A model generated the notes under the pieces. That model was not told the origin of the DNA. It was given only the letters and a program-made list of their open reading frames with translations, and ran no database searches. From a candidate division WOR-3 bacterium (GTDB lineage Bacteria > Hydrothermota > Tepidihabitantia > SM23-42 > JAOAFX01), in NCBI GenBank assembly GCA_039802265.1, contig JBDRWI010000002.1:6430-70429 (forward strand): a stretch of 64,000 bases of DNA. The letters are read 5' to 3'. The position numbers were made by a program, and so were the translations under genes. Of the stretch, positions 2 through 63,941 are shown piece by piece. Position 1 is the first letter of the stretch. Each line of letters starts with the position of its first letter.

Positions 2-1093
2 ACACTCGGGCTTATTGCCGTGGTCATATCTATGTGGGTGAGCAATACTGCCACAACAGCAATGCTTTATCCAATAGGATTGGGAATTCTTAACACAATT
101 GCTCAATTGCAATCAAAAGATGTAAAGAAAATGAAATATTCTACGGGTCTTATGCTCATTATTGCATACGGCGCATCGGTCGGTGGCATTGGAACGCCTG
201 TGGGAACACCACCAAATCTTATCGGCATTGGATTGATTAAAGAACTTCTGGGTAAGAATATCACATTTTTCAGATGGCTGCTATTTGCAATACCAATGGT
301 TGCGATAATGTATATAGTTTTGTTCTTATTACTCAGATTGTTATTTCCACCAGGATTTAAAGAGCTCTCCGGGATTGAAGAGTATGTAGGAAGAGAAAAG
401 AAGGCGATGGGCAAAATTTCAACCGGGGAAAGGAATGTCTTGATTGCATTTTTGATTACGGTCTTTTTATGGGTATTTCCAGGTATACTGGCAATAATTT
501 TGGGTTCTGATGCCCCCTGCTGCAAATGGTGGGAGGTGCATATACCCGAAGGGCTCGCGGCAATAGTTGGTGCAGTTATTTTATTTATTCTGCCATTAGA
601 CTTGAAAGAGAAAAAAGGGACAATTACCTGGAAAGAAGCGGTGGATATTGACTGGGGAACGATTCTTTTGTTTGGGGGTGGATTGTCTTTGGGTAGTCTG
701 ATGTTTTCTACGGGTCTGGCTGAGAATATTGGAAAAGGAATTTTGAGCCTCACCGGTGCCAAGGGTCTTTTTTCAATAACCGCAATTTCAATTTTACTTG
801 CAATTATTACCAGTGAACTTACATCAAATACTGCTTCGGCAAATATGGTCATTCCAATAATGATATCGCTCGCAAAGGCGGCGAATGTCAATCCGTTTAT
901 ACCTGCGCTTGGCGCCTGTCTTGGTTCAAGTTACGGATTTATGCTGCCGGTATCAACACCACCCAATGCAATCATCTATGGCTCTGGTTACGTTCCGATT
1001 ACAAGGATGATCAGAGCAGGAATTATCTTTGACCTTTTAGGATTTTTGATAATCCTTGCCGGTGTATTTTTACTATTACCATTAATTGGATAA
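2..1093 (+). CDS. DASS-family (SLC13-like) divalent anion/dicarboxylate:Na+ symporter. 5'-partial: the ORF is open to the window edge.
   Basis: Polytopic hydrophobic protein. It carries the duplicated hairpin motifs 'GTPVGTPPNLIG' and 'PVSTPPNAIIYGSG' typical of DASS/CitT-like transporters. There is no stop between position 2 and the ATG at 20. Confidence 0.6.
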   Translation, partial: TLGLIAVVISMWVSNTATTAMLYPIGLGILNTIAQLQSKDVKKMKYSTGLMLIIAYGASVGGIGTPVGTPPNLIGIGLIKELLGKNITFFRWLLFAIPMVAIMYIVLFLLLRLLFPPGFKELSGIEEYVGREKKAMGKISTGERNVLIAFLITVFLWVFPGILAIILGSDAPCCKWWEVHIPEGLAAIVGAVILFILPLDLKEKKGTITWKEAVDIDWGTILLFGGGLSLGSLMFSTGLAENIGKGILSLTGAKGLFSITAISILLAIITSELTSNTASANMVIPIMISLAKAANVNPFIPALGACLGSSYGFMLPVSTPPNAIIYGSGYVPITRMIRAGIIFDLLGFLIILAGVFLLLPLIG

Positions 1094-1149: not shown

Positions 1150-1704
1150 GTGAATAAATTCCCTGCCTTTATTTTTATAATTTTCAATTTTCTTAATGCT
1201 GGCGAGTTCATTAGGAATGGCAGTTTTGAAGATTCACTAAATTTCTGGAGTCCTTATGCACATGGTGAGACTTATACACTAAATGTAGATGAGAACTATG
1301 ATTCAGACCCGGATTCCGAAGTATATGTAGGAAGACTGGATAGATTGATAACCACAATCTATCAGGTCTGTTATGTACCAACCCTCGAACTCGACTTTTC
1401 TTTTAAGGCTCGTTTTTTTGCTAAAAGTTATGATACACTCCATCCACATCCGGCAATTGCATCAATTATATTATCCTACCTTGATACTGATGAGAATGTT
1501 CTTGGCGAGACTCGCATTTTCTATTATGCAGAAAGTCTTTACTGGCAACCATCGCCAATTTTACATCTTATTGAGATAAGTGATACAAATTGGTTTTCTG
1601 ATACAATTGGTATTCTGAATGAATTACAGAATCTTCCGGGCGTCGTTCCTTCTGAGATTGCGAAATTAAGGATAGTTTTATACTGTCAATCCTATGGTTG
1701 TTGA
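1150..1704 (+). CDS. N-terminal part of a secreted CBM-like/T9SS cargo protein. It ends at an in-frame TGA (1702-1704) and is in the same frame as the 1897..3078 ORF.
   Basis: Signal peptide MNKFPAFIFIIFNFLNAG. The 'IRNGSFEDSLNFW' start resembles CBM4_9-type carbohydrate-binding modules. Frame 1 continues with no further stop from 1705 into the downstream ORF. Confidence 0.5.
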   Translation: MNKFPAFIFIIFNFLNAGEFIRNGSFEDSLNFWSPYAHGETYTLNVDENYDSDPDSEVYVGRLDRLITTIYQVCYVPTLELDFSFKARFFAKSYDTLHPHPAIASIILSYLDTDENVLGETRIFYYAESLYWQPSPILHLIEISDTNWFSDTIGILNELQNLPGVVPSEIAKLRIVLYCQSYGC

Positions 1705-1896
1705 CCGGGACACGCCGAGGCGAAGGTCTTCGCCGATGATATAAGCCTTGCATATAATGGAACATCTGCCCATTGTACCTTAATTTCTTATTTTTTAGAT
1801 GACTCGGCAGGAAATTTTAATGGCATTTTAGACCCCGGTGAGGAAGTAGAACTTTATTATCTACTTAAGAATATTGGCGGAGTTGATATACAGAAT

Positions 1897-3078
1897 TTGA
1901 CCGGCGTTATTGTAAGTTCATCACCGTATCTTAGCATTCTAAATGGGAGTGCATATTTTGGTAGTGTTCCGATTGATTCTCTAATAAAAAATTCAAATCC
2001 CTTCAGAATTCAGGCACTACCTAATGCACCCCACGGCACGAGTAGTAATCTTGATTTGATTTTGAATGAAAATTCAGGTATTATTGACACAATCAGGATA
2101 AAGGTCATAATTGGCAAAAGAGATTATTTTGTCTGGGACCCGGACAGGAATAATTCAAGTGGTCCCATTGTTCATCTCATCCTTCAAAATCTTGGTTATA
2201 CCGGTGATTACGCAAATGCACAATTTTATTCCTTTGAGCATCTGAAAAATTATAAATCACTTTTTGTGTGCAGTGGTGTGGCATATAATAACTATGTTCT
2301 GTTTAAATACAGTTCTGAGGTCGCAAAGGTAGCAGATTTTATAAACTATGGCGGCAATGTATATCTTGAAGGCGGTGAATGCTGGGCATTTGACCCGTTT
2401 GTAATGCACGGTTTTAACTTTAACCCTTATTTTGGCATTAAGCCGATAAACGATGGATATATAAACATGGGACCGATTGAGGGTGAACCCAATACCTTCA
2501 CTGACCATATGTTATTCAGATACTGTGGTGAGAATTTGTGGCTTGACGATATTGATTCTACAGGAAGCGGGTTCAGGATATTTCGTGATAACGATGACAA
2601 TTACTATTGTGGAGTGGCAAACATAGCACCGGGATATAGAACTGTCGGAGTGTCATTTGAATTGTCCGGACTTATAGATAACGAGCCATATACAAAGGCA
2701 TCCCTTCTTGACTCAATAATGCATTTTTTCGGGATAAATCTTGTTGGTATTGAAGATTTAGAAAATCCGCAATCCGCAATCCGCAATCCGCAATTTTTAG
2801 AAGTTTATCCCAATCCATTCAGAAATAACTGTGTGATTAAAGCCGAAATCCCAATACCTCAAGAAGCGAACGGTCAGTACCCAGCAGTCAGTATAAAAAT
2901 ATTTAATGTAGCCGGCTGTTTGGTGAAACAATTTAACCATTTAGCCAATTGTCCATTTAACCAGATAGTCTGGTCTGGTAATGATGAACTGGGTCGCAAA
3001 TTACCTGCTGGTATCTATTTTGTCAAATTGGAGGCGGGCGACTTCAAAAAGGTGGAGAAGGTAAATTTATTAAGATAA
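1897..3078 (+). CDS. C-terminal part of the same secreted protein, ending in a Por/T9SS C-terminal sorting domain. The ORF-track start is a TTG, but the frame is open back to the TGA at 1702.
   Basis: The C-terminus 'EVYPNPFRNNCVIKAEIP...GIYFVKLEAGDFKKVEKVNLLR' matches the Por secretion C-terminal tail pattern (YPNPF...lyd..GrlV....G.Y.v.l). Confidence 0.6.
   Translation: MTGVIVSSSPYLSILNGSAYFGSVPIDSLIKNSNPFRIQALPNAPHGTSSNLDLILNENSGIIDTIRIKVIIGKRDYFVWDPDRNNSSGPIVHLILQNLGYTGDYANAQFYSFEHLKNYKSLFVCSGVAYNNYVLFKYSSEVAKVADFINYGGNVYLEGGECWAFDPFVMHGFNFNPYFGIKPINDGYINMGPIEGEPNTFTDHMLFRYCGENLWLDDIDSTGSGFRIFRDNDDNYYCGVANIAPGYRTVGVSFELSGLIDNEPYTKASLLDSIMHFFGINLVGIEDLENPQSAIRNPQFLEVYPNPFRNNCVIKAEIPIPQEANGQYPAVSIKIFNVAGCLVKQFNHLANCPFNQIVWSGNDELGRKLPAGIYFVKLEAGDFKKVEKVNLLR
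2764..2794 (+). repeat. Heptanucleotide microsatellite (AATCCGC)x4 plus a partial fifth unit, inside a coding region.
   Basis: Direct reading of 'aatccgcaatccgcaatccgcaatccgcaat'. The 7-bp unit is not a multiple of 3. Confidence 0.9.
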
Positions 3079-3183: not shown

Positions 3184-4002
3184 TTAGAAGGAGGGAGTGG
3201 AAGTAAATTGTAACAATCTTTCTTTATACTTTTTTGCCTGAATATAGCCTCTCTCAATTGCCTCTTTAGCCTTTTCAAACTGGCTTAGGCCAATACCGGT
3301 TGTATCAATGTCTATCCACACACCATTCTTGAGTTGTTTAATGTTATATTCAATCAATCTTGAACTTATCAAATCAAATGTTTTTACAAAGATATCTTTT
3401 ATACTATATTCTTTTTCTGAATCTTGTTTGGCATTAATTTGAATTCGTGGATATTCAAATCTATGAAGAACATTTACTGCTATGACTTTTTTTGCACCAA
3501 GATTTATTGCTACATCTACGGGTACGGGATTAATAAATCCTCCGTCAATAAGAACCCTTCCGCTATATTTATTGGGTGTAAATACAATCGGGATTGCTAT
3601 TGAAGATCTTATCGCCTGAATCAGATCACCACGGTCAATAATAATTTCAACATTCTCTTCTATATCGGTAGCAACCGCCGCATATTTTATTGGCAATTCT
3701 TCAATTTTTGTATCACCAAGATAAGGCTTCAGGAATTTAATAATGTTTTTTCCATTAATAAACCCTTTTTTAGAGATATGGAATCTGAATAAGTTTTTCT
3801 TTTCCTTTTTGTCTATCTTTAATGCAATCTCTTCCATCTGTTTTGCTGTAAATCCCCTTGCATAAAATCCACCAATCAGTGAGCCCATACTTGCACCGAC
3901 AACAATATCCGGTTTAATATTCAATTCTTCAAGAAATTTAATTACGCCGATATGGGCATATCCTTTTGCTGCACCACCGCTTAAAACGAGACCGAGCATC
4001 AT
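3184..4002 (-). CDS. Patatin-like phospholipase (RssA-like).
   Basis: Gly-rich oxyanion motif 'LSGGAAKGYAHIGV'. GxSxG nucleophile 'GASMG'. Catalytic DGG 'LIDGGFINPVP'. Confidence 0.85.
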   Translation of the reverse strand: MMLGLVLSGGAAKGYAHIGVIKFLEELNIKPDIVVGASMGSLIGGFYARGFTAKQMEEIALKIDKKEKKNLFRFHISKKGFINGKNIIKFLKPYLGDTKIEELPIKYAAVATDIEENVEIIIDRGDLIQAIRSSIAIPIVFTPNKYSGRVLIDGGFINPVPVDVAINLGAKKVIAVNVLHRFEYPRIQINAKQDSEKEYSIKDIFVKTFDLISSRLIEYNIKQLKNGVWIDIDTTGIGLSQFEKAKEAIERGYIQAKKYKERLLQFTSTPSF

Positions 4003-5232: not shown

Positions 5233-6303
5233 ATGCACAGGTTTGTTATAGTCTTTATTCCCCTGATAGTTTCTTCGAATCCTTATCTTACGGGTGTTAT
5301 CAATGAATTTCAGACTGATACCATCCTCGGGCAAAAGTTTGAATTCCACCCAATTGATTATGGCTTTTCCCTTCCACTTTTTAATTCAGAGGTTATAACA
5401 CCGGCGGGTACTTCCTATGTTAATACATTGATTAACAATCCTCCCTGTGGTTATACCGTTATTGATACATCAATTTTAGAAGGACCATTCTATTTGCCGT
5501 TAGATAATGGTTTTATAGAAATCTTTTTACCTGAATATTACCTGGATTGCATTGCTTATACTGATACCTTCCATTCTCCAATTTTTGCCCCTCCAATGGG
5601 TTCTTCAGCGGCACGGTTTATATACAAAAAAAATGGTTTAACCAAATTGGACTGGTATATAGATTACACACCAACGCTGGGTGGAGATAATGACGACTAT
5701 CCAGGGTGCATTATTTCTGGCCATGTCTATTTTAATTACGCTCCTGTTGAAAGCGCACGGGTGACCGCTGTCTGTACGGATAGTATCCAGACCCCGGGGC
5801 CATTTCATACCGCTTGCACTACATATACAGATAATACAGGTTTTTACCATTTTGACAGCCTCTGGCCGGCGAGATACTGGATGACCGCTGTCTTGGGTTC
5901 TTATCAGCCGCCGGGTGAATTGTCTCCAGAATTGTGTGCCCTCTGGCCGACGGATTTTGATTTCTATTTTGTAGAAATGGAGGAAAATCTATCCTTTGTT
6001 TCACCGGAACAAATGCTGTTCTCCGTCTATCCGAATCCTTTCAAAAATTTTTGTGTGATTCGCTACGCACTGAGTAAGAGTATGTCTGGTACTTACTCCG
6101 CAACGCCTACCATTCGTATTTATGATGTTACAGGGAGGCTGGTGAGGCAGTTTGATTGCCTATCTACCAGTCAATTTAGCCAAAATCAAATTCTCTGGAA
6201 TGGTAAAGATAGGACAGATACCAAGTTAACGCCTGGTCTTTACTATATCGTTTTAGAGTCACCCGAATATAAAAGTGTTAAAAAGGCGGTGATGATAAGA
6301 TAA
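5233..6303 (+). CDS. Secreted protein with a carboxypeptidase-regulatory-like beta-sandwich region and a T9SS C-terminal sorting domain.
   Basis: Strong SD 'GGAGGAACC' before the ATG. C-terminus 'SVYPNPFKNFCVIRY...IRIYDVTGRLVRQF...GLYYIVLESPEYKSVKKAVMIR'. 'GHVYFNYAPVESARVTAV...TDNTGFYHF' resembles a CarboxypepD_reg domain. Confidence 0.6.
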   Translation: MHRFVIVFIPLIVSSNPYLTGVINEFQTDTILGQKFEFHPIDYGFSLPLFNSEVITPAGTSYVNTLINNPPCGYTVIDTSILEGPFYLPLDNGFIEIFLPEYYLDCIAYTDTFHSPIFAPPMGSSAARFIYKKNGLTKLDWYIDYTPTLGGDNDDYPGCIISGHVYFNYAPVESARVTAVCTDSIQTPGPFHTACTTYTDNTGFYHFDSLWPARYWMTAVLGSYQPPGELSPELCALWPTDFDFYFVEMEENLSFVSPEQMLFSVYPNPFKNFCVIRYALSKSMSGTYSATPTIRIYDVTGRLVRQFDCLSTSQFSQNQILWNGKDRTDTKLTPGLYYIVLESPEYKSVKKAVMIR

Positions 6304-6438: not shown

Positions 6439-6512
6439 CGGGGCGTGGCGCAGTGGCTTAGCGCACTTGGTTTGGGACCAAGGGGTCGTGGGTTCAAATC
6501 CCTCCGCCCCGA
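6439..6512 (+). tRNA. tRNA-Pro (anticodon TGG).
   Basis: Acceptor CGGGGCG/CGCCCCG. D-arm GCGC-AGTGGCTTA-GCGC. Anticodon stem CTTGG/CCAAG with loop TTTGGGA. T-loop TTCAAAT. One U-U mismatch in the T-stem. Confidence 0.85.
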
Positions 6513-8150: not shown

Positions 8151-9032
8151 ATGAGCGCGGAAGAGCTCTCTAATAGAATTGAGGATTTTCTAATTTACCT
8201 AAAGAAAGAGAAAAACTATTCAAATTGTACCCTGCGCGGATACAGGGCTGACTTAAGGCAATTTTTTGATTATTTTAAGGAAAAGAAAATAGCGCTGATT
8301 GATTATAATGAAATCGTTCAGTATTTAGCCTTTCTTTTAAAATATGGTGCAGGTCCCCGCAGCGTTGCCCGTAAGTTGTCAGCCTTAAAATCATTTTTTA
8401 AATTCCTAAAAAAAAGTGGCGTTATCCCGGAGAATTTCGTTCAGGGCATAAGGTCACCAAAGATGAAACGGCATCTTCCTGGCTTTTTGACCTATAACCA
8501 GATAAGTGATACATTTGAGAAAATCCAGGATTTAAGAGACCGGGCAATTATGGAGGTTTTATATTCCTGTGGACTGAGAGCAGGGGAACTTGTCGGATTG
8601 AATCTTGAGGATTTGGATTTAAACAGAGAGGAGATAAGGGTGAAAGGGAAGGGAAGGAAGGAGCGCATTGTTCCCCTGGGCCGGGTTGCCCTGAAGGCGA
8701 TTCTTAAATACCTGCCCGAACGGCGACAGCGGTGTCGAGATAAACCTGATACCCGGGCACTTTTTTTGAATTATCGCGGTGAGCGTTTGACAACGCGCTC
8801 TTTGCAGCGGATTGTCCGCAGGTATCTTATAAATTGTGCCAATGCCTCAGGAACAAATCCGCACATCTTGAGACACTCCTTTGCTACACATCTTTTAGAA
8901 CACGGTGCGGACTTGCGTGCGGTTCAGGAATTGCTCGGACATTCCAGCCTTGCCACAGTTCAGATTTATACACATCTAACAACAAAAAGGTTAAGAGAAA
9001 TATACCAGAGGGCGCATCCACGGGCAGATTGA
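8151..9032 (+). CDS. xerC: Tyrosine site-specific recombinase, XerC/XerD family.
   Basis: N-terminal 'RGYRADLRQFFDYF' core-binding domain. C-terminal 'HILRHSFATHLLEHGADLRAVQELLGHSSLATVQIYTHL' carries the R-H-R-Y catalytic signature. Confidence 0.85.
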   Translation: MSAEELSNRIEDFLIYLKKEKNYSNCTLRGYRADLRQFFDYFKEKKIALIDYNEIVQYLAFLLKYGAGPRSVARKLSALKSFFKFLKKSGVIPENFVQGIRSPKMKRHLPGFLTYNQISDTFEKIQDLRDRAIMEVLYSCGLRAGELVGLNLEDLDLNREEIRVKGKGRKERIVPLGRVALKAILKYLPERRQRCRDKPDTRALFLNYRGERLTTRSLQRIVRRYLINCANASGTNPHILRHSFATHLLEHGADLRAVQELLGHSSLATVQIYTHLTTKRLREIYQRAHPRAD

Positions 9033-61154: not shown

Positions 61155-63941
61155 CTATTTCAAGAGCACTGCCTTCTTAGAAATTCGTATTCCATCGGTT
61201 TCTGCAATGAGAATATAGACCCCGTTGGGAATCCTTCTTCCATTCTGGTCAGTATCGGGAAAAGCAAATTTTGTCTCACTGGTCTTGATTCTGCCTTCAA
61301 ATATTTTTTTAATCCTTCGGCCATCAATAGAATATAACATTATAGATAGTGTAGATGGCTTGGGTAGAGTTACGGAGATTTTTGCACCACCTTTTATGGG
61401 ATTGGAGAAATTTATTGATATTCTTTTGTTAGAGAAGGCAGGATTTTGTTCTGCCAGACCAACTATGAATGAAGGCGAAAAGAGATACTGGGTAAGAACA
61501 ATTGAGTCATTTGGTGGAATGGTTCTATTTACCCACATATAACAGATACAATCGTCGTAATACCCAGGCAGGCTATCGGCAATGCCATCACCCATATACG
61601 GAACATCAAATGCATTTGCATAGCCGCCATAGGTGCCACCCCAGCGGACATAAAATAGAGAATCGGGACAGGTTGGCGGTGGGCTATAAAAAGTAGGTGC
61701 GGTGACGCTCAGAAAATGCCTCCGGCTCGGTATTGCATCTTCCGCCTCCTCGCCATACCATAGTGAGTTGAGCCCTGTCCACTGGATTTCACGGGGCTCC
61801 CAGGGATTGGGGGTCGTTGAATAGTATCGGCGATAGTAGGGTGAGTCATAATTACCAACATGGGTATCCCATTCAAAACGGAAACTGAATGTTCGGTTCT
61901 GGTTTGCAAGATTCTTGAGAATCAGAGAAAGTCCAAGCCCTGAGGAGTCACCCCATTTCTGGGTAGTAAATCTCTGTTTCAATTCAAAATTGTCCTGTCC
62001 GTTATTCACCCGCCAGATTTGTAATAATGCCCTTGAATCAATAAATTTCGCACCGTTATAAAAACGCACTAATGATACTGTATCAAAGGGCGGGGAAGTG
62101 GATGCGCCGGTTGACCTTGTAACATAATCAAGGTTTGTTCGATAAGAACGAATTGTAGTATAAGAAGACCAGGGATTGTGGGCACCACCGCCATAAAGCA
62201 ATGTCACATCAGTACCATAGGGATGTCCTGCGTCGGTTGCCGCAGTATATGTGCCAGCATCGGATATGGCATCATTGGAGATATACCAGGCAATTGTATT
62301 TGTTCCCAATTTTATAGGGTCTTGTGTGATATAACCACCGACCGTATCTATTCTTATGTCATCAAAATACCATCCCGGATTAACAACCGATGAGTTGCTG
62401 GTGAACCGGAATCTCGCCCTGAAATTTGAAGAAATGTATGGTGTTATATCAAGGGTATCAACACGCCAACCCCCTGATGAGCCAGAGAATGTCCTTAAAG
62501 TATCCCAGTCTGTGCCACCATCACTTGATATCTCAATTATACATAAATCATAACTCTGTTCTGTCTCATACCACTGGGCAATCTGCAGTGAAGCTACGGT
62601 AAAACCGGTTAAATCACATAACGGGGTAAGTACTTCCCAGTTGGCATTGTTCTCATAGCTACCAGAAAGGTCTGTAGCCCAGCATTTTGTTCCACTATAG
62701 GCACCGTTTGGACCGGAGGTTGGTATGCCACAATGCCATTCATTGATATCCGTATAAGGCGGGTCAGCAGTAAAACCACCATTATTTGCCTCAAAGTCAT
62801 AAAAGTTCAAGGTTGACTTTGAACCGATTGAGACACGAACCGAGTCAATATACCAGCCAGAATAGACTACACTTCCATCACTTTTGAATCTGAATCGGAA
62901 TCTAAATCTGTTGGTATTTGTGTATGATGAAATGTCAATGGTGGTTCTTAACCAGCCACCACTTGAACCTCTAAAACTCTGAGAAACCTTATTCCACGGT
63001 CCATTCTGCCCATCGGTAGAGACCTCAACCCAGCCTGAATCATAACCAGTTTCGGTCTGAAACCATTGATAGAAGTTGATTTCTCCATAAGGGGCACCCT
63101 GGAGGTTATGATTTGTTCCATTCCTTATTGCTGCGTCCGCATAGTTCTTGTAGTTACCAGTAAGATTCGTCCCCCAACATCTTTGTCCTTCATAGGCAGA
63201 GCCCGGTCCCACACCTGGATCTGGAATACCCCATTGCCAGGGTGCAGAAGAATCTCCAATAACCACTTCATTCAAATCTCCGCCGTCGTTTTCAAAATTA
63301 CTCTGATAAACATTACTGGTCAGGTTGACATCCACAATCCTTACATCATCAATATACCATCCCGGATAATTGACTGAAGCGTCACTTGTAAACCTAAAGC
63401 GGATTAACAAGTTATTCATTCCTGCATAAGATGCAAGAGAAATGCTTACCGGTATCCAGCCCCCACTTGTCCCCCTAAAACTCTGTGAAATCTTTGTCCA
63501 GTTAGTTCCGTTGTCGGTTGAGACCTCAACCCAGCCTGAGTCATAACTGGTCTCGGTAGAATACCAGTGATAGAATTCAAGTTTCGGATTTGTAGTGCCC
63601 GAGAGATTTTGTGCCGGCATCGTCAGTTTGTAATCACAGTTATTTTCATAATTACCGGTAAGATTTGTTCCCCAGCAGTTCACACCCGAATATGCGGAAT
63701 TGGGGCCCGAGGTAGGCTGTCCCCATTGCCAGGTGATACTCCAGAAGGGAACCCGGAGAAATGCGGAATCGGTCTCAAAGTCCCAGAAATAGGGTGTAGC
63801 ACGAATTTTGGAGTAATCCGCAGGATTCTGCATAGGGGTTTTTCCCCAGAAACTCCTCTTTTCAATCTCAATACCCTTATGTTTGATCGAAGGGGAAGCA
63901 AATAATACCCCGGTTATTAAAAGCAACAGCAAATTTCTCAT
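61155..63941 (-). CDS. Large secreted protein with three tandem copies of an uncharacterised beta-sandwich domain of about 135 aa, plus a T9SS C-terminal sorting domain.
   Basis: Signal peptide MRNLLLLLITGVLFASP. The repeats each carry 'CWGTNLTGNYENN...WY.TE.SYD.GWVEVSTD.G..W...SQSFRGSSGGW...RFRF.S....V..GWYIDDVRI'. CTD 'ISVTLPKPSTLSIMLYSIDGRRIKKI...GVYILIAE'. SD 'GAGGAGGT' upstream. Confidence 0.65.
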   Translation of the reverse strand: MRNLLLLLITGVLFASPSIKHKGIEIEKRSFWGKTPMQNPADYSKIRATPYFWDFETDSAFLRVPFWSITWQWGQPTSGPNSAYSGVNCWGTNLTGNYENNCDYKLTMPAQNLSGTTNPKLEFYHWYSTETSYDSGWVEVSTDNGTNWTKISQSFRGTSGGWIPVSISLASYAGMNNLLIRFRFTSDASVNYPGWYIDDVRIVDVNLTSNVYQSNFENDGGDLNEVVIGDSSAPWQWGIPDPGVGPGSAYEGQRCWGTNLTGNYKNYADAAIRNGTNHNLQGAPYGEINFYQWFQTETGYDSGWVEVSTDGQNGPWNKVSQSFRGSSGGWLRTTIDISSYTNTNRFRFRFRFKSDGSVVYSGWYIDSVRVSIGSKSTLNFYDFEANNGGFTADPPYTDINEWHCGIPTSGPNGAYSGTKCWATDLSGSYENNANWEVLTPLCDLTGFTVASLQIAQWYETEQSYDLCIIEISSDGGTDWDTLRTFSGSSGGWRVDTLDITPYISSNFRARFRFTSNSSVVNPGWYFDDIRIDTVGGYITQDPIKLGTNTIAWYISNDAISDAGTYTAATDAGHPYGTDVTLLYGGGAHNPWSSYTTIRSYRTNLDYVTRSTGASTSPPFDTVSLVRFYNGAKFIDSRALLQIWRVNNGQDNFELKQRFTTQKWGDSSGLGLSLILKNLANQNRTFSFRFEWDTHVGNYDSPYYRRYYSTTPNPWEPREIQWTGLNSLWYGEEAEDAIPSRRHFLSVTAPTFYSPPPTCPDSLFYVRWGGTYGGYANAFDVPYMGDGIADSLPGYYDDCICYMWVNRTIPPNDSIVLTQYLFSPSFIVGLAEQNPAFSNKRISINFSNPIKGGAKISVTLPKPSTLSIMLYSIDGRRIKKIFEGRIKTSETKFAFPDTDQNGRRIPNGVYILIAETDGIRISKKAVLLK

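Follow-up and report, generated by a model that had tools for sequence, protein, structure and literature searches.

Probable selenocysteine recoding in a family of predicted type IX-secreted proteins from candidate division WOR-3 and other uncultured bacteria

Whether an in-frame TGA codon ends translation or is recoded is the question raised by a gene in a 64,000-nucleotide stretch of DNA from a candidate division WOR-3 bacterium (the window; assembly GCA_039802265.1, contig JBDRWI010000002.1, positions 6,430 to 70,429 of the forward strand). One frame of 642 codons spans 1150-3078 on the forward strand, from a GTG start at 1150 to a TAA at 3076-3078; its sole internal stop is the TGA at 1702-1704 (residue 185), immediately 3' of a Cys codon (TGT, 1699-1701), and the sequence around it reads YGC*PGHAEAKVFADD. 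An earlier interpretation, made from the letters and translations alone (the sequence-only reading), noted that the open reading frames (ORFs) 1150..1704 and 1897..3078 share a frame, are separated only by this TGA and are open afterwards, and proposed that the TGA, being followed by a hairpin, might encode selenocysteine (Sec), with a nonsense-mutated pseudogene or an assembly error as alternatives. Translation of 1150-3078 bears out this layout, and the comparative evidence described below supports the recoding proposal: the complete gene very probably encodes a selenoprotein, in which Sec is inserted at UGA 1702-1704 in a manner dependent on SelB and a selenocysteine insertion sequence (SECIS), the product being a predicted cargo of the type IX secretion system (T9SS).

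Elsewhere in the window TGA acts as a normal stop, as the sequence-only reading also held, terminating 21 of the 51 long ORFs. Public annotation treats 1150-3078 as split, into a 184-residue ORF, either uncalled or labeled 'hypothetical', and a 393-residue 'T9SS type A sorting domain-containing protein' (P0001, 100% identity), the start-like codon nearest in frame after the TGA being the TTG at 1897. A second assembly of the locus is identical at the protein level, and assembly GCA_965649065.1 likewise carries this locus.

The TGA codon and the frame beyond it

The codon at 1702-1704 is conserved. TGA occupies the aligned position in 105 of 105 related loci, which have GC contents of 31-74% and protein identities down to about 27%, and neither TAA, TAG nor any sense codon was seen there, so that the alignment of orthologues, which the sequence-only reading had put forward as a check, reveals no ordinary sense codon at this site. 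A genome scan with an alignment of the N-terminal ORF gave 18 loci, mostly WOR-3-labeled and falling into two paralogue groups that frequently share a genome, a metagenome scan with an alignment of the junction (A4) gave 80 loci, themselves covering GC contents of 31-74%, and five more were added by further look-ups. All 23 loci from genomes and contigs encoding homologous proteins have the TGA, as do three more distant loci (the short contig L026 ends 15 nt past the TGA) and two WOR-3 contigs, the complete genome CP070664.1 (GCA_020355325.1) included. Orthologous DNA has the same layout, with an upstream ORF of 183-187 residues ending in Cys-TGA and a 'downstream gene' in the same frame, which, wherever the contig is long enough, stays open for roughly 440-490 codons after the TGA, to the T9SS domain.

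The same pattern is apparent among predicted proteins. ORFs of 170-230 residues that stop at the TGA position make up 88 of 125 protein clusters at 50% identity, and 119 of 120 among the clusters listed at 90% identity. The residue before the TGA is Cys in all 21 aligned N-terminal ORFs, and across the wider family in 63/88 and 99/119 clusters at the two levels, otherwise being Gly, Ser, Thr or Asp; the residues around the site vary by subfamily, i.e. YGC-U-PGH, HTC-U-GAS, DGC-U-xGHC, SG-U-G, NS-U-G and DD-U-G. For close homologues of the C-terminal part, the called starts all lie shortly past the TGA position, in some cases giving 'MAKVFADD', and resemble forced gene calls. Paralogue pairs are present in several WOR-3 genomes (L013/L019, L015/L020, L011/L022 and L008/L023), paralogues in the family being ~30-35% identical in the N-terminal domain, and two family members, P0206 and P0287, are encoded on one 497-kb contig. 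Since the same TGA is kept across both loci and protein clusters, a pseudogene, an assembly error or a chance stop is effectively excluded.

The sole full-length match, P0014, has Trp at the Sec site, which is a gene-calling artefact. P0014 corresponds to L005 102-1988 (JGI contig Ga0190293_1015397), the DNA of which reads TGA at this position; its database translation disagrees with a standard-code translation of its own DNA and was evidently produced by the choice, for this short contig, of a code reading TGA as Trp.

Coding selection continues past the TGA, with conservation resuming at the very first codon after it. The 64 codons that lie between the TGA and the TTG at 1897 (1705-1896) contain no in-frame ATG, GTG or TTG, such that they would be translated only given read-through, yet have a pN/pS ratio of 0.11-0.33 when compared with eight orthologues, at a pS of 0.5-0.7, i.e. 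with synonymous sites near saturation. The upstream ORF carries a putative signal peptide and the downstream ORF a predicted T9SS sorting domain; as judged from these assignments, the two export signals, for the inner membrane and then for the T9SS, are present together in the read-through product only. Moreover, a product terminated at the TGA would lack the last β-strand of its N-terminal domain, because the Sec site precedes that strand in the AlphaFold model of P0014.

The hairpin downstream of the TGA

A spacer of 14 nt (1705-1718) separates the TGA from a predicted SECIS hairpin at 1719-1734, in which GGCGAA and UUCGCC pair as a perfect 6-bp stem closed by a 4-nt GGUC apical loop (1725-1728), 20 nt past the UGA; the hairpin encodes (E)AKVFA. 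The position, loop and spacing of this hairpin, all of which had been described in the sequence-only reading, are confirmed by the sequence and by folding.

When 96 distinct sequences around the TGA were aligned, the GGUC loop was found to be invariant, and RNAalifold, run unguided, returned exactly the 6-bp hairpin. Of the stem cells 99.7% are paired, with double compensatory changes (GC to AU and AU to GC) at four of the six pairs; none of 500 shuffles matched the hairpin in pairing and compensation, nor did any slid control. Across the family the spacer is 11, 14 or 17 nt, always a number of whole codons plus two nucleotides, which places the loop 17-23 nt from the UGA. The same hairpin is present in the 28 loci that were found via the N-terminal domain.

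Four hairpin variants are informative with respect to the level at which conservation operates. The variant GCAAAGGTCTTTGC, present in both paralogue groups, is synonymous, whereas GCGGAGGTCTCCGC (L027, L051 and L065) changes K to E and F to S, and both GCGAGGGTCCTCGC (L055, L113 and L115) and GCAAGGGTCCTTGC (L061 and L063) change K to R and F to L; thus, in three of the four, pairing is preserved at the cost of amino acid change. Codon usage within the hairpin is similarly constrained. The Lys codon is AAG in 92/92 cases, where 46 would be expected from the rest of each gene, and the Val codon is GTC in 97/97, where 30.6 would be expected, the latter invariance extending to 40 AT-rich genes in which GTC makes up ~17% of Val codons. 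A natural control is provided by the rare homologues lacking the TGA, which also lack AKVFA (having ARAIV, VRVLA, AWAYA, TTYA or AEVCV instead) and keep only the final D[D/N]. No Rfam family matched the hairpin region (E up to 10). On these comparative grounds, the hairpin is an element conserved at the RNA level.

On the minus strand of the window, at about 63525-63543, there is another TGA, followed at 9 nt by the perfect hairpin GGTTGA-GGTC-TCAACC. It was considered as a further recoding site and rejected, the TGA being out of frame within the 928-residue ORF 61155..63941; the occurrence is probably due to chance.

Selenocysteine machinery and competing explanations

Genes for Sec machinery were found beside one member of the family. 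A scan of all loci with ARAGORN identified in L055 a tRNA-Sec with a UCA anticodon ~1.5 kb from the family member, which matches Rfam RF01852 at 74.3 bits (cut-off 47). In L111, a 152-kb contig that extends L055, selA, selB and the tRNA-Sec lie 1.5-9 kb upstream of the family member. The selA product matches PF03841, is 40% identical to E. coli SelA (E 5e-92) and has the motif FSGDKLIGGPQ, and that of selB combines an EF-Tu-like GTPase domain with SelB winged-helix domains (E 7e-68); selD was not seen near this member. The search for Sec machinery that the sequence-only reading had suggested is thus borne out beside the L111 member, but not in the vicinity of the window gene. The gene order at L111 1259-11902 is selA, selB, a GH130 gene, a GT4 glycosyltransferase, the tRNA-Sec (8378-8471, minus strand), an Omp28-like T9SS gene and the family member, and a thioredoxin-fold Redoxin gene with a WCKMC motif is located ~0.8 kb downstream of the latter; the Omp28-like gene directly upstream of the family member recurs in the WOR-3 contig L115.

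By analogy with E. coli fdhF, it can be inferred that, when a ribosome reaches UGA 1702-1704, the hairpin at 1719-1734 would present its GGUC loop 20 nt downstream, that SelB in complex with Sec-tRNA(Sec) would bind the hairpin, and that SelB would then deliver Sec such that release factor 2 does not terminate translation. The predicted product is a 642-residue chain with an N-terminal signal peptide and a C-terminal T9SS sorting domain.

Several observations weigh against this proposal. Searches of the 64-kb window and, using the second assembly, of the 8 kb further upstream found no selA, selB, selD or tRNA-Sec, motif and tblastn scans of the window returning IF-2 only. The surroundings of the gene, to a distance of about 8-10 kb, likewise showed no sel genes in either a complete WOR-3 genome or a 554-kb WOR-3 contig, and tRNA-Sec was not detected in most loci scanned, being found only in L055/L111. 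The sel genes were seen beside one family member only, and the contig that carries them is labeled Latescibacteria (NCBI), its nearest homologues being labeled WOR-3. No homologue with Cys in place of Sec was found, the seven full-length homologues without the TGA having A, P, D, I or G at the site; judging from these sequences, this is unusual for a selenoprotein family, Cys being the usual signature although not a strict requirement.

Other reservations concern the hairpin. Considered in the window sequence only, it is within chance: the fold of 1695-1760, which had been proposed as a check, does contain the hairpin, but is no better than chance (z = 0.37), and a count of TGA codons that have, 9-18 nt downstream, a perfect 6-bp stem and a G[G/U]NN loop gave three in the window, where about 0.86 would be expected. 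The hairpin being unremarkable in one sequence, its significance rests entirely on the comparison with related loci. Within that comparison the sequences are related, and the compensatory cells outnumber the independent events; furthermore, the 80 metagenome loci were retrieved with peptide patterns including AKVFAD, a procedure that inflates the conservation of amino acids, but not that of codons. A bulged U in the upper stem, the absence of which from the window hairpin the sequence-only reading had already counted against Sec, is lacking in all 96 sequences, each of which has a perfect 6-bp stem. The bulged U is contacted by E. coli SelB, but is a feature of fdhF and is not part of the general consensus. 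That consensus, as embodied in the bSECISearch model, comprises a loop of 3-9 nt with a G in its first two positions, a stem of 4-16 bp, a UGA-to-loop distance of 16-37 nt and a minimum free energy of at most -7.5 kcal/mol (PMC13188914). The hairpins of the family have a 4-nt loop opening with GG, a 6-bp stem and 17-23 nt to the loop, whereas the bare window hairpin has an energy of -7.3 kcal/mol, GC-richer variants reaching -9.7; the element agrees with the published consensus in three of four features, the energy being marginally short of the limit.

The conserved TGA, the compensatory changes in the hairpin, the frozen synonymous sites and the adjacent selA, selB and tRNA-Sec together favor Sec recoding over a pseudogene or an assembly error. 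Of the other explanations, the one that survives best is a SelB-independent read-through or regulated termination, in which the hairpin delays the ribosome or impedes release factor 2 and the UGA is decoded in some rounds by a near-cognate tRNA (Trp, Cys or Arg), yielding a short N-terminal fragment, also secreted, alongside the full-length protein in a set ratio. Such a process would account for the conserved UGA, the conserved hairpin and the downstream coding selection, and is compatible with the lack of Cys-for-Sec homologues and of sel genes in the window and the 8 kb upstream; in addition, the window UGA is followed by C, and UGA-C is a weak termination context in E. coli. It is nonetheless unlikely. 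The GGUC loop and its closing pair are exactly as in the fdhF SECIS, the loop is frozen at synonymous sites, which would be needless for a purely steric roadblock, the spacing is within the SECIS range, and selA, selB and tRNA-Sec adjoin a family member; moreover, the short product would have a truncated N-terminal domain without its last β-strand.

Very unlikely is the proposal that the locus comprises two genes, i.e. one for a small secreted β-sandwich protein ending at the TGA and an independent one starting from TTG 1897 or similar, the hairpin being a regulatory or stabilizing mRNA element between them. Although every public gene call treats the locus in this way, the codons that follow the TGA are under purifying selection from the very next one onwards, despite the absence of an in-frame start; the product of the downstream gene would have no signal peptide, and that of the upstream gene would be missing its last strand; the called start of the downstream ORF varies among orthologues; and the upstream and downstream frames are identical in every locus. 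A nonsense mutation, or an error in sequencing or assembly, at 1702-1704, the default for a single sequence with a hairpin that by itself is within chance, has a negligible probability and is refuted as an alternative by the presence of TGA, and of no other codon, in all 105 loci, which come from independent assemblies and samples, by the second assembly of the locus, and by strong purifying selection on both sides of the TGA. An alternative genetic code, with TGA read as Trp or Gly genome-wide, can likewise be set aside, since the Trp in the one public gene call that suggests it (P0014) conflicts with the standard-code translation of its own DNA, the window has TGA-terminated ORFs (21/51) and tight gene packing, and there is a single in-frame TGA per gene, always at the same site.

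Protein architecture and comparison with known systems

If Sec is indeed inserted, the residue would lie within an N-terminal domain of predicted carbohydrate-binding module (CBM)-like fold. The protein begins with a probable Sec-type signal peptide (1150-1200), read by eye from the translation, in which a charged start precedes a hydrophobic core and a cleavage motif of small residues (MNKFPAFIFIIFNFLNA, with GE following the apparent cleavage point), and the N termini of 21 orthologues appear similar by eye. In AlphaFold models this is followed by a jelly-roll β-sandwich of ~180 residues (1201-1749, the 3' boundary being approximate), the pLDDT being 89.8 for the full-length homologue P0014 and 93.2 for the truncated window ORF. 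In the P0014 model the Cys-Sec pair is in the loop that joins the penultimate strand of the sandwich to the last one, AKVFADDISL, which is encoded past the TGA. The invariant residues are N23, W33, D53/D55/E57, Q72, Y110, T121, W132, H139, W148 and E158. Foldseek searches with the β-sandwich gave weak matches only (TM 0.4-0.5), i.e. to the Fbs1 sugar-binding domain, CBM61, CBM22, a phage tail-fibre domain and FAP20.

The secondary structure of the P0014 model indicates an Ig-like domain and then an α/β domain at approximately 1762-2769, and Pfam and NCBIfam contain no family for the N-terminal or middle domains. The C-terminal region (2803-3063, residues 552-638) is a T9SS type A sorting domain, with scores above the cut-offs for both PF18962 (E 1.1e-6, 29.3 bits, cut-off 27) and TIGR04183 (30.6 bits, cut-off 23), in agreement, at the sequence level, with the suggestion in the sequence-only reading that the protein is a T9SS cargo, a point which that reading had counted against Sec and which, like the missing bulged U, holds without being decisive.

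The coding linker that precedes the sorting domain contains a perfect tandem repeat of the 7-nt unit AATCCGC (2764-2794, 4.4 copies), which encodes NPQSAIRNPQ. The orthologues have a similar peptide, e.g. NSQFAIRNSQ, but no perfect repeat of at least three copies; gain or loss of one unit would cause a frameshift just 5' of the sorting domain. Three high-GC, full-length proteins of about 636-639 residues that lack the TGA (P0079, P0129 and P0169) differ from the window protein in the middle region, and the loop of P0079, DGC-A-EGHC, follows the 'C-U-xGHC' subfamily pattern with Ala for Sec.

The genes that flank the window paralogue group are also consistent between loci. A comparison of window 20-1093 (upstream) and 3184-4002 (downstream) with L001, L008, L011, L013-L015, L088 and L098 found a DASS-type (Na_sulph_symp/CitMHS) transporter gene always adjoining the gene upstream and, in most cases, a patatin-like gene downstream. 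Among loci the transporter is 85-90% identical, versus 53-75% for the N-terminal ORF of the predicted selenoprotein. Another T9SS cargo gene, encoding 356 residues with a Por_Secre_tail-like end, is located 2 kb downstream (5233-6303) and is followed by a tRNA-Pro (6439-6512).

The mechanism proposed is ordinary for bacteria. Judging from Pfam, NCBIfam, Rfam and the available catalogue of selenoprotein families, the family itself appears to be new. When compared with NCBIfam release 20 and Pfam, the read-through protein, with Cys for Sec, matched only T9SS tail models and no selenoprotein model. A May 2026 review (PMC13188914) tabulates 119 families of prokaryotic selenoproteins, none of which is comparable. 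Recent papers on the prediction or cataloguing of bacterial selenoproteins do not mention T9SS, secretion or WOR-3, and full-text literature searches combining WOR-3 or T9SS with selenoproteins returned nothing relevant and no T9SS cargo described as a selenoprotein. The balance of the evidence leans towards a large, hitherto undescribed family of cell-surface or secreted T9SS selenoproteins in WOR-3, TA06, Latescibacteria-labeled and other uncultured lineages, with Sec in a CBM-like β-sandwich and never replaced by Cys.

Most of the selenoproteins known from bacteria are redox enzymes built on thioredoxin-like folds. The roles ascribed to selenium in bacteria would be widened by an abundant family that is exported, carries Sec in a lectin-like domain and lacks a Cys counterpart, and candidate phyla known only from metagenomes would gain a selenium-dependent trait. 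The features that set the family apart are its predicted export as T9SS cargo, its lectin-like fold, the lack of a Cys counterpart and a near-invariant fdhF-type SECIS across dissimilar genomes, which would be among the most conserved known. If the assignment is correct, selenium chemistry would occur outside the cell, e.g. in soft-metal or chalcogen capture or in covalent tethering of substrates, and the family may be a main reason that these lineages keep Sec machinery. Hundreds of public gene calls would then be wrong, each gene appearing as a 'hypothetical protein' plus a headless 'T9SS sorting domain protein' or, for one of them, being read in the wrong code; they could be repaired by a rule that looks for TGA, then 11-17 nt, then GCGAAGGTCTTCGC or covarying forms. 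The compact 16-nt SECIS, with its fdhF-type loop, absence of a bulge and natural compensatory variants, would also be a convenient test of what SelB needs outside E. coli.

With respect to recoding, the closest known system is E. coli fdhF, in which the UGA is followed, after 11 nt, by GGUUGCA-GGUC-UGCACC; both the minimal element and the spacing quoted in the sequence-only reading agree with the actual gene. In both cases an in-frame UGA precedes a short hairpin inside the coding region, the apical GGUC loop and closing A-U pair are identical, the spacing is comparable (11 nt versus 11, 14 or 17 nt in the window family), and selA, selB and tRNA-Sec homologues are present in one host of the family. 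By contrast, the window stem is a perfect 6-bp GC-rich helix with no bulged U and no conserved lower helix, and, whereas the fdhF product is a cytoplasmic molybdoenzyme, the window protein is an unrelated and predicted secreted β-sandwich. The window family is also unusual in that its hairpin is far more conserved in sequence than is normal for SECIS elements, which are often dissimilar between genes (PMC13188914).

The T9SS-related features, by comparison, are conventional. The C-terminal Por_Secre_tail domain is shared with T9SS cargo bearing CBM-like or adhesin β-sandwiches, and the Ig plus α/β module recurs as the C-terminal two thirds of T9SS peptidases (C25, M14 and S8) and of peptidylarginine deiminases, to which the middle module of the window protein is 37-42% identical; in homologues P0018-P0059 the peptidase or deiminase Pfam domains are N-terminal to this module. 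The window protein differs from such cargo and peptidases in that its N-terminal domain carries a predicted Sec and there is no peptidase domain.

Adjacent Cys and Sec residues occur in other proteins; animal thioredoxin reductase ends in GCUG. Among prokaryotes, families with an adjacent Cys-Sec ('CU') pair include SaoC, SaoL, SaoB, HgcA, MbdU, KCU-star and the Csac_0668 2Fe-2S protein, several of which are annotated as metal-binding or organometallic (PMC13188914). The window family resembles these in having Cys directly before Sec, in YGC-U-PG or HTC-U-GA contexts, but has no sequence or fold relationship with them; its motif is internal, the protein is predicted to be exported, and about a quarter of clusters have Gly, Ser, Thr or Asp in place of the Cys, which is therefore not obligatory. 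Because several of the 'CU' families are metal-related, a metal or redox site is a reasonable working idea, and it may be speculated, by analogy, that the Cys-Sec pair most likely serves as a selenylsulfide redox site or as a soft-metal or metalloid-binding site displayed outside the cell.

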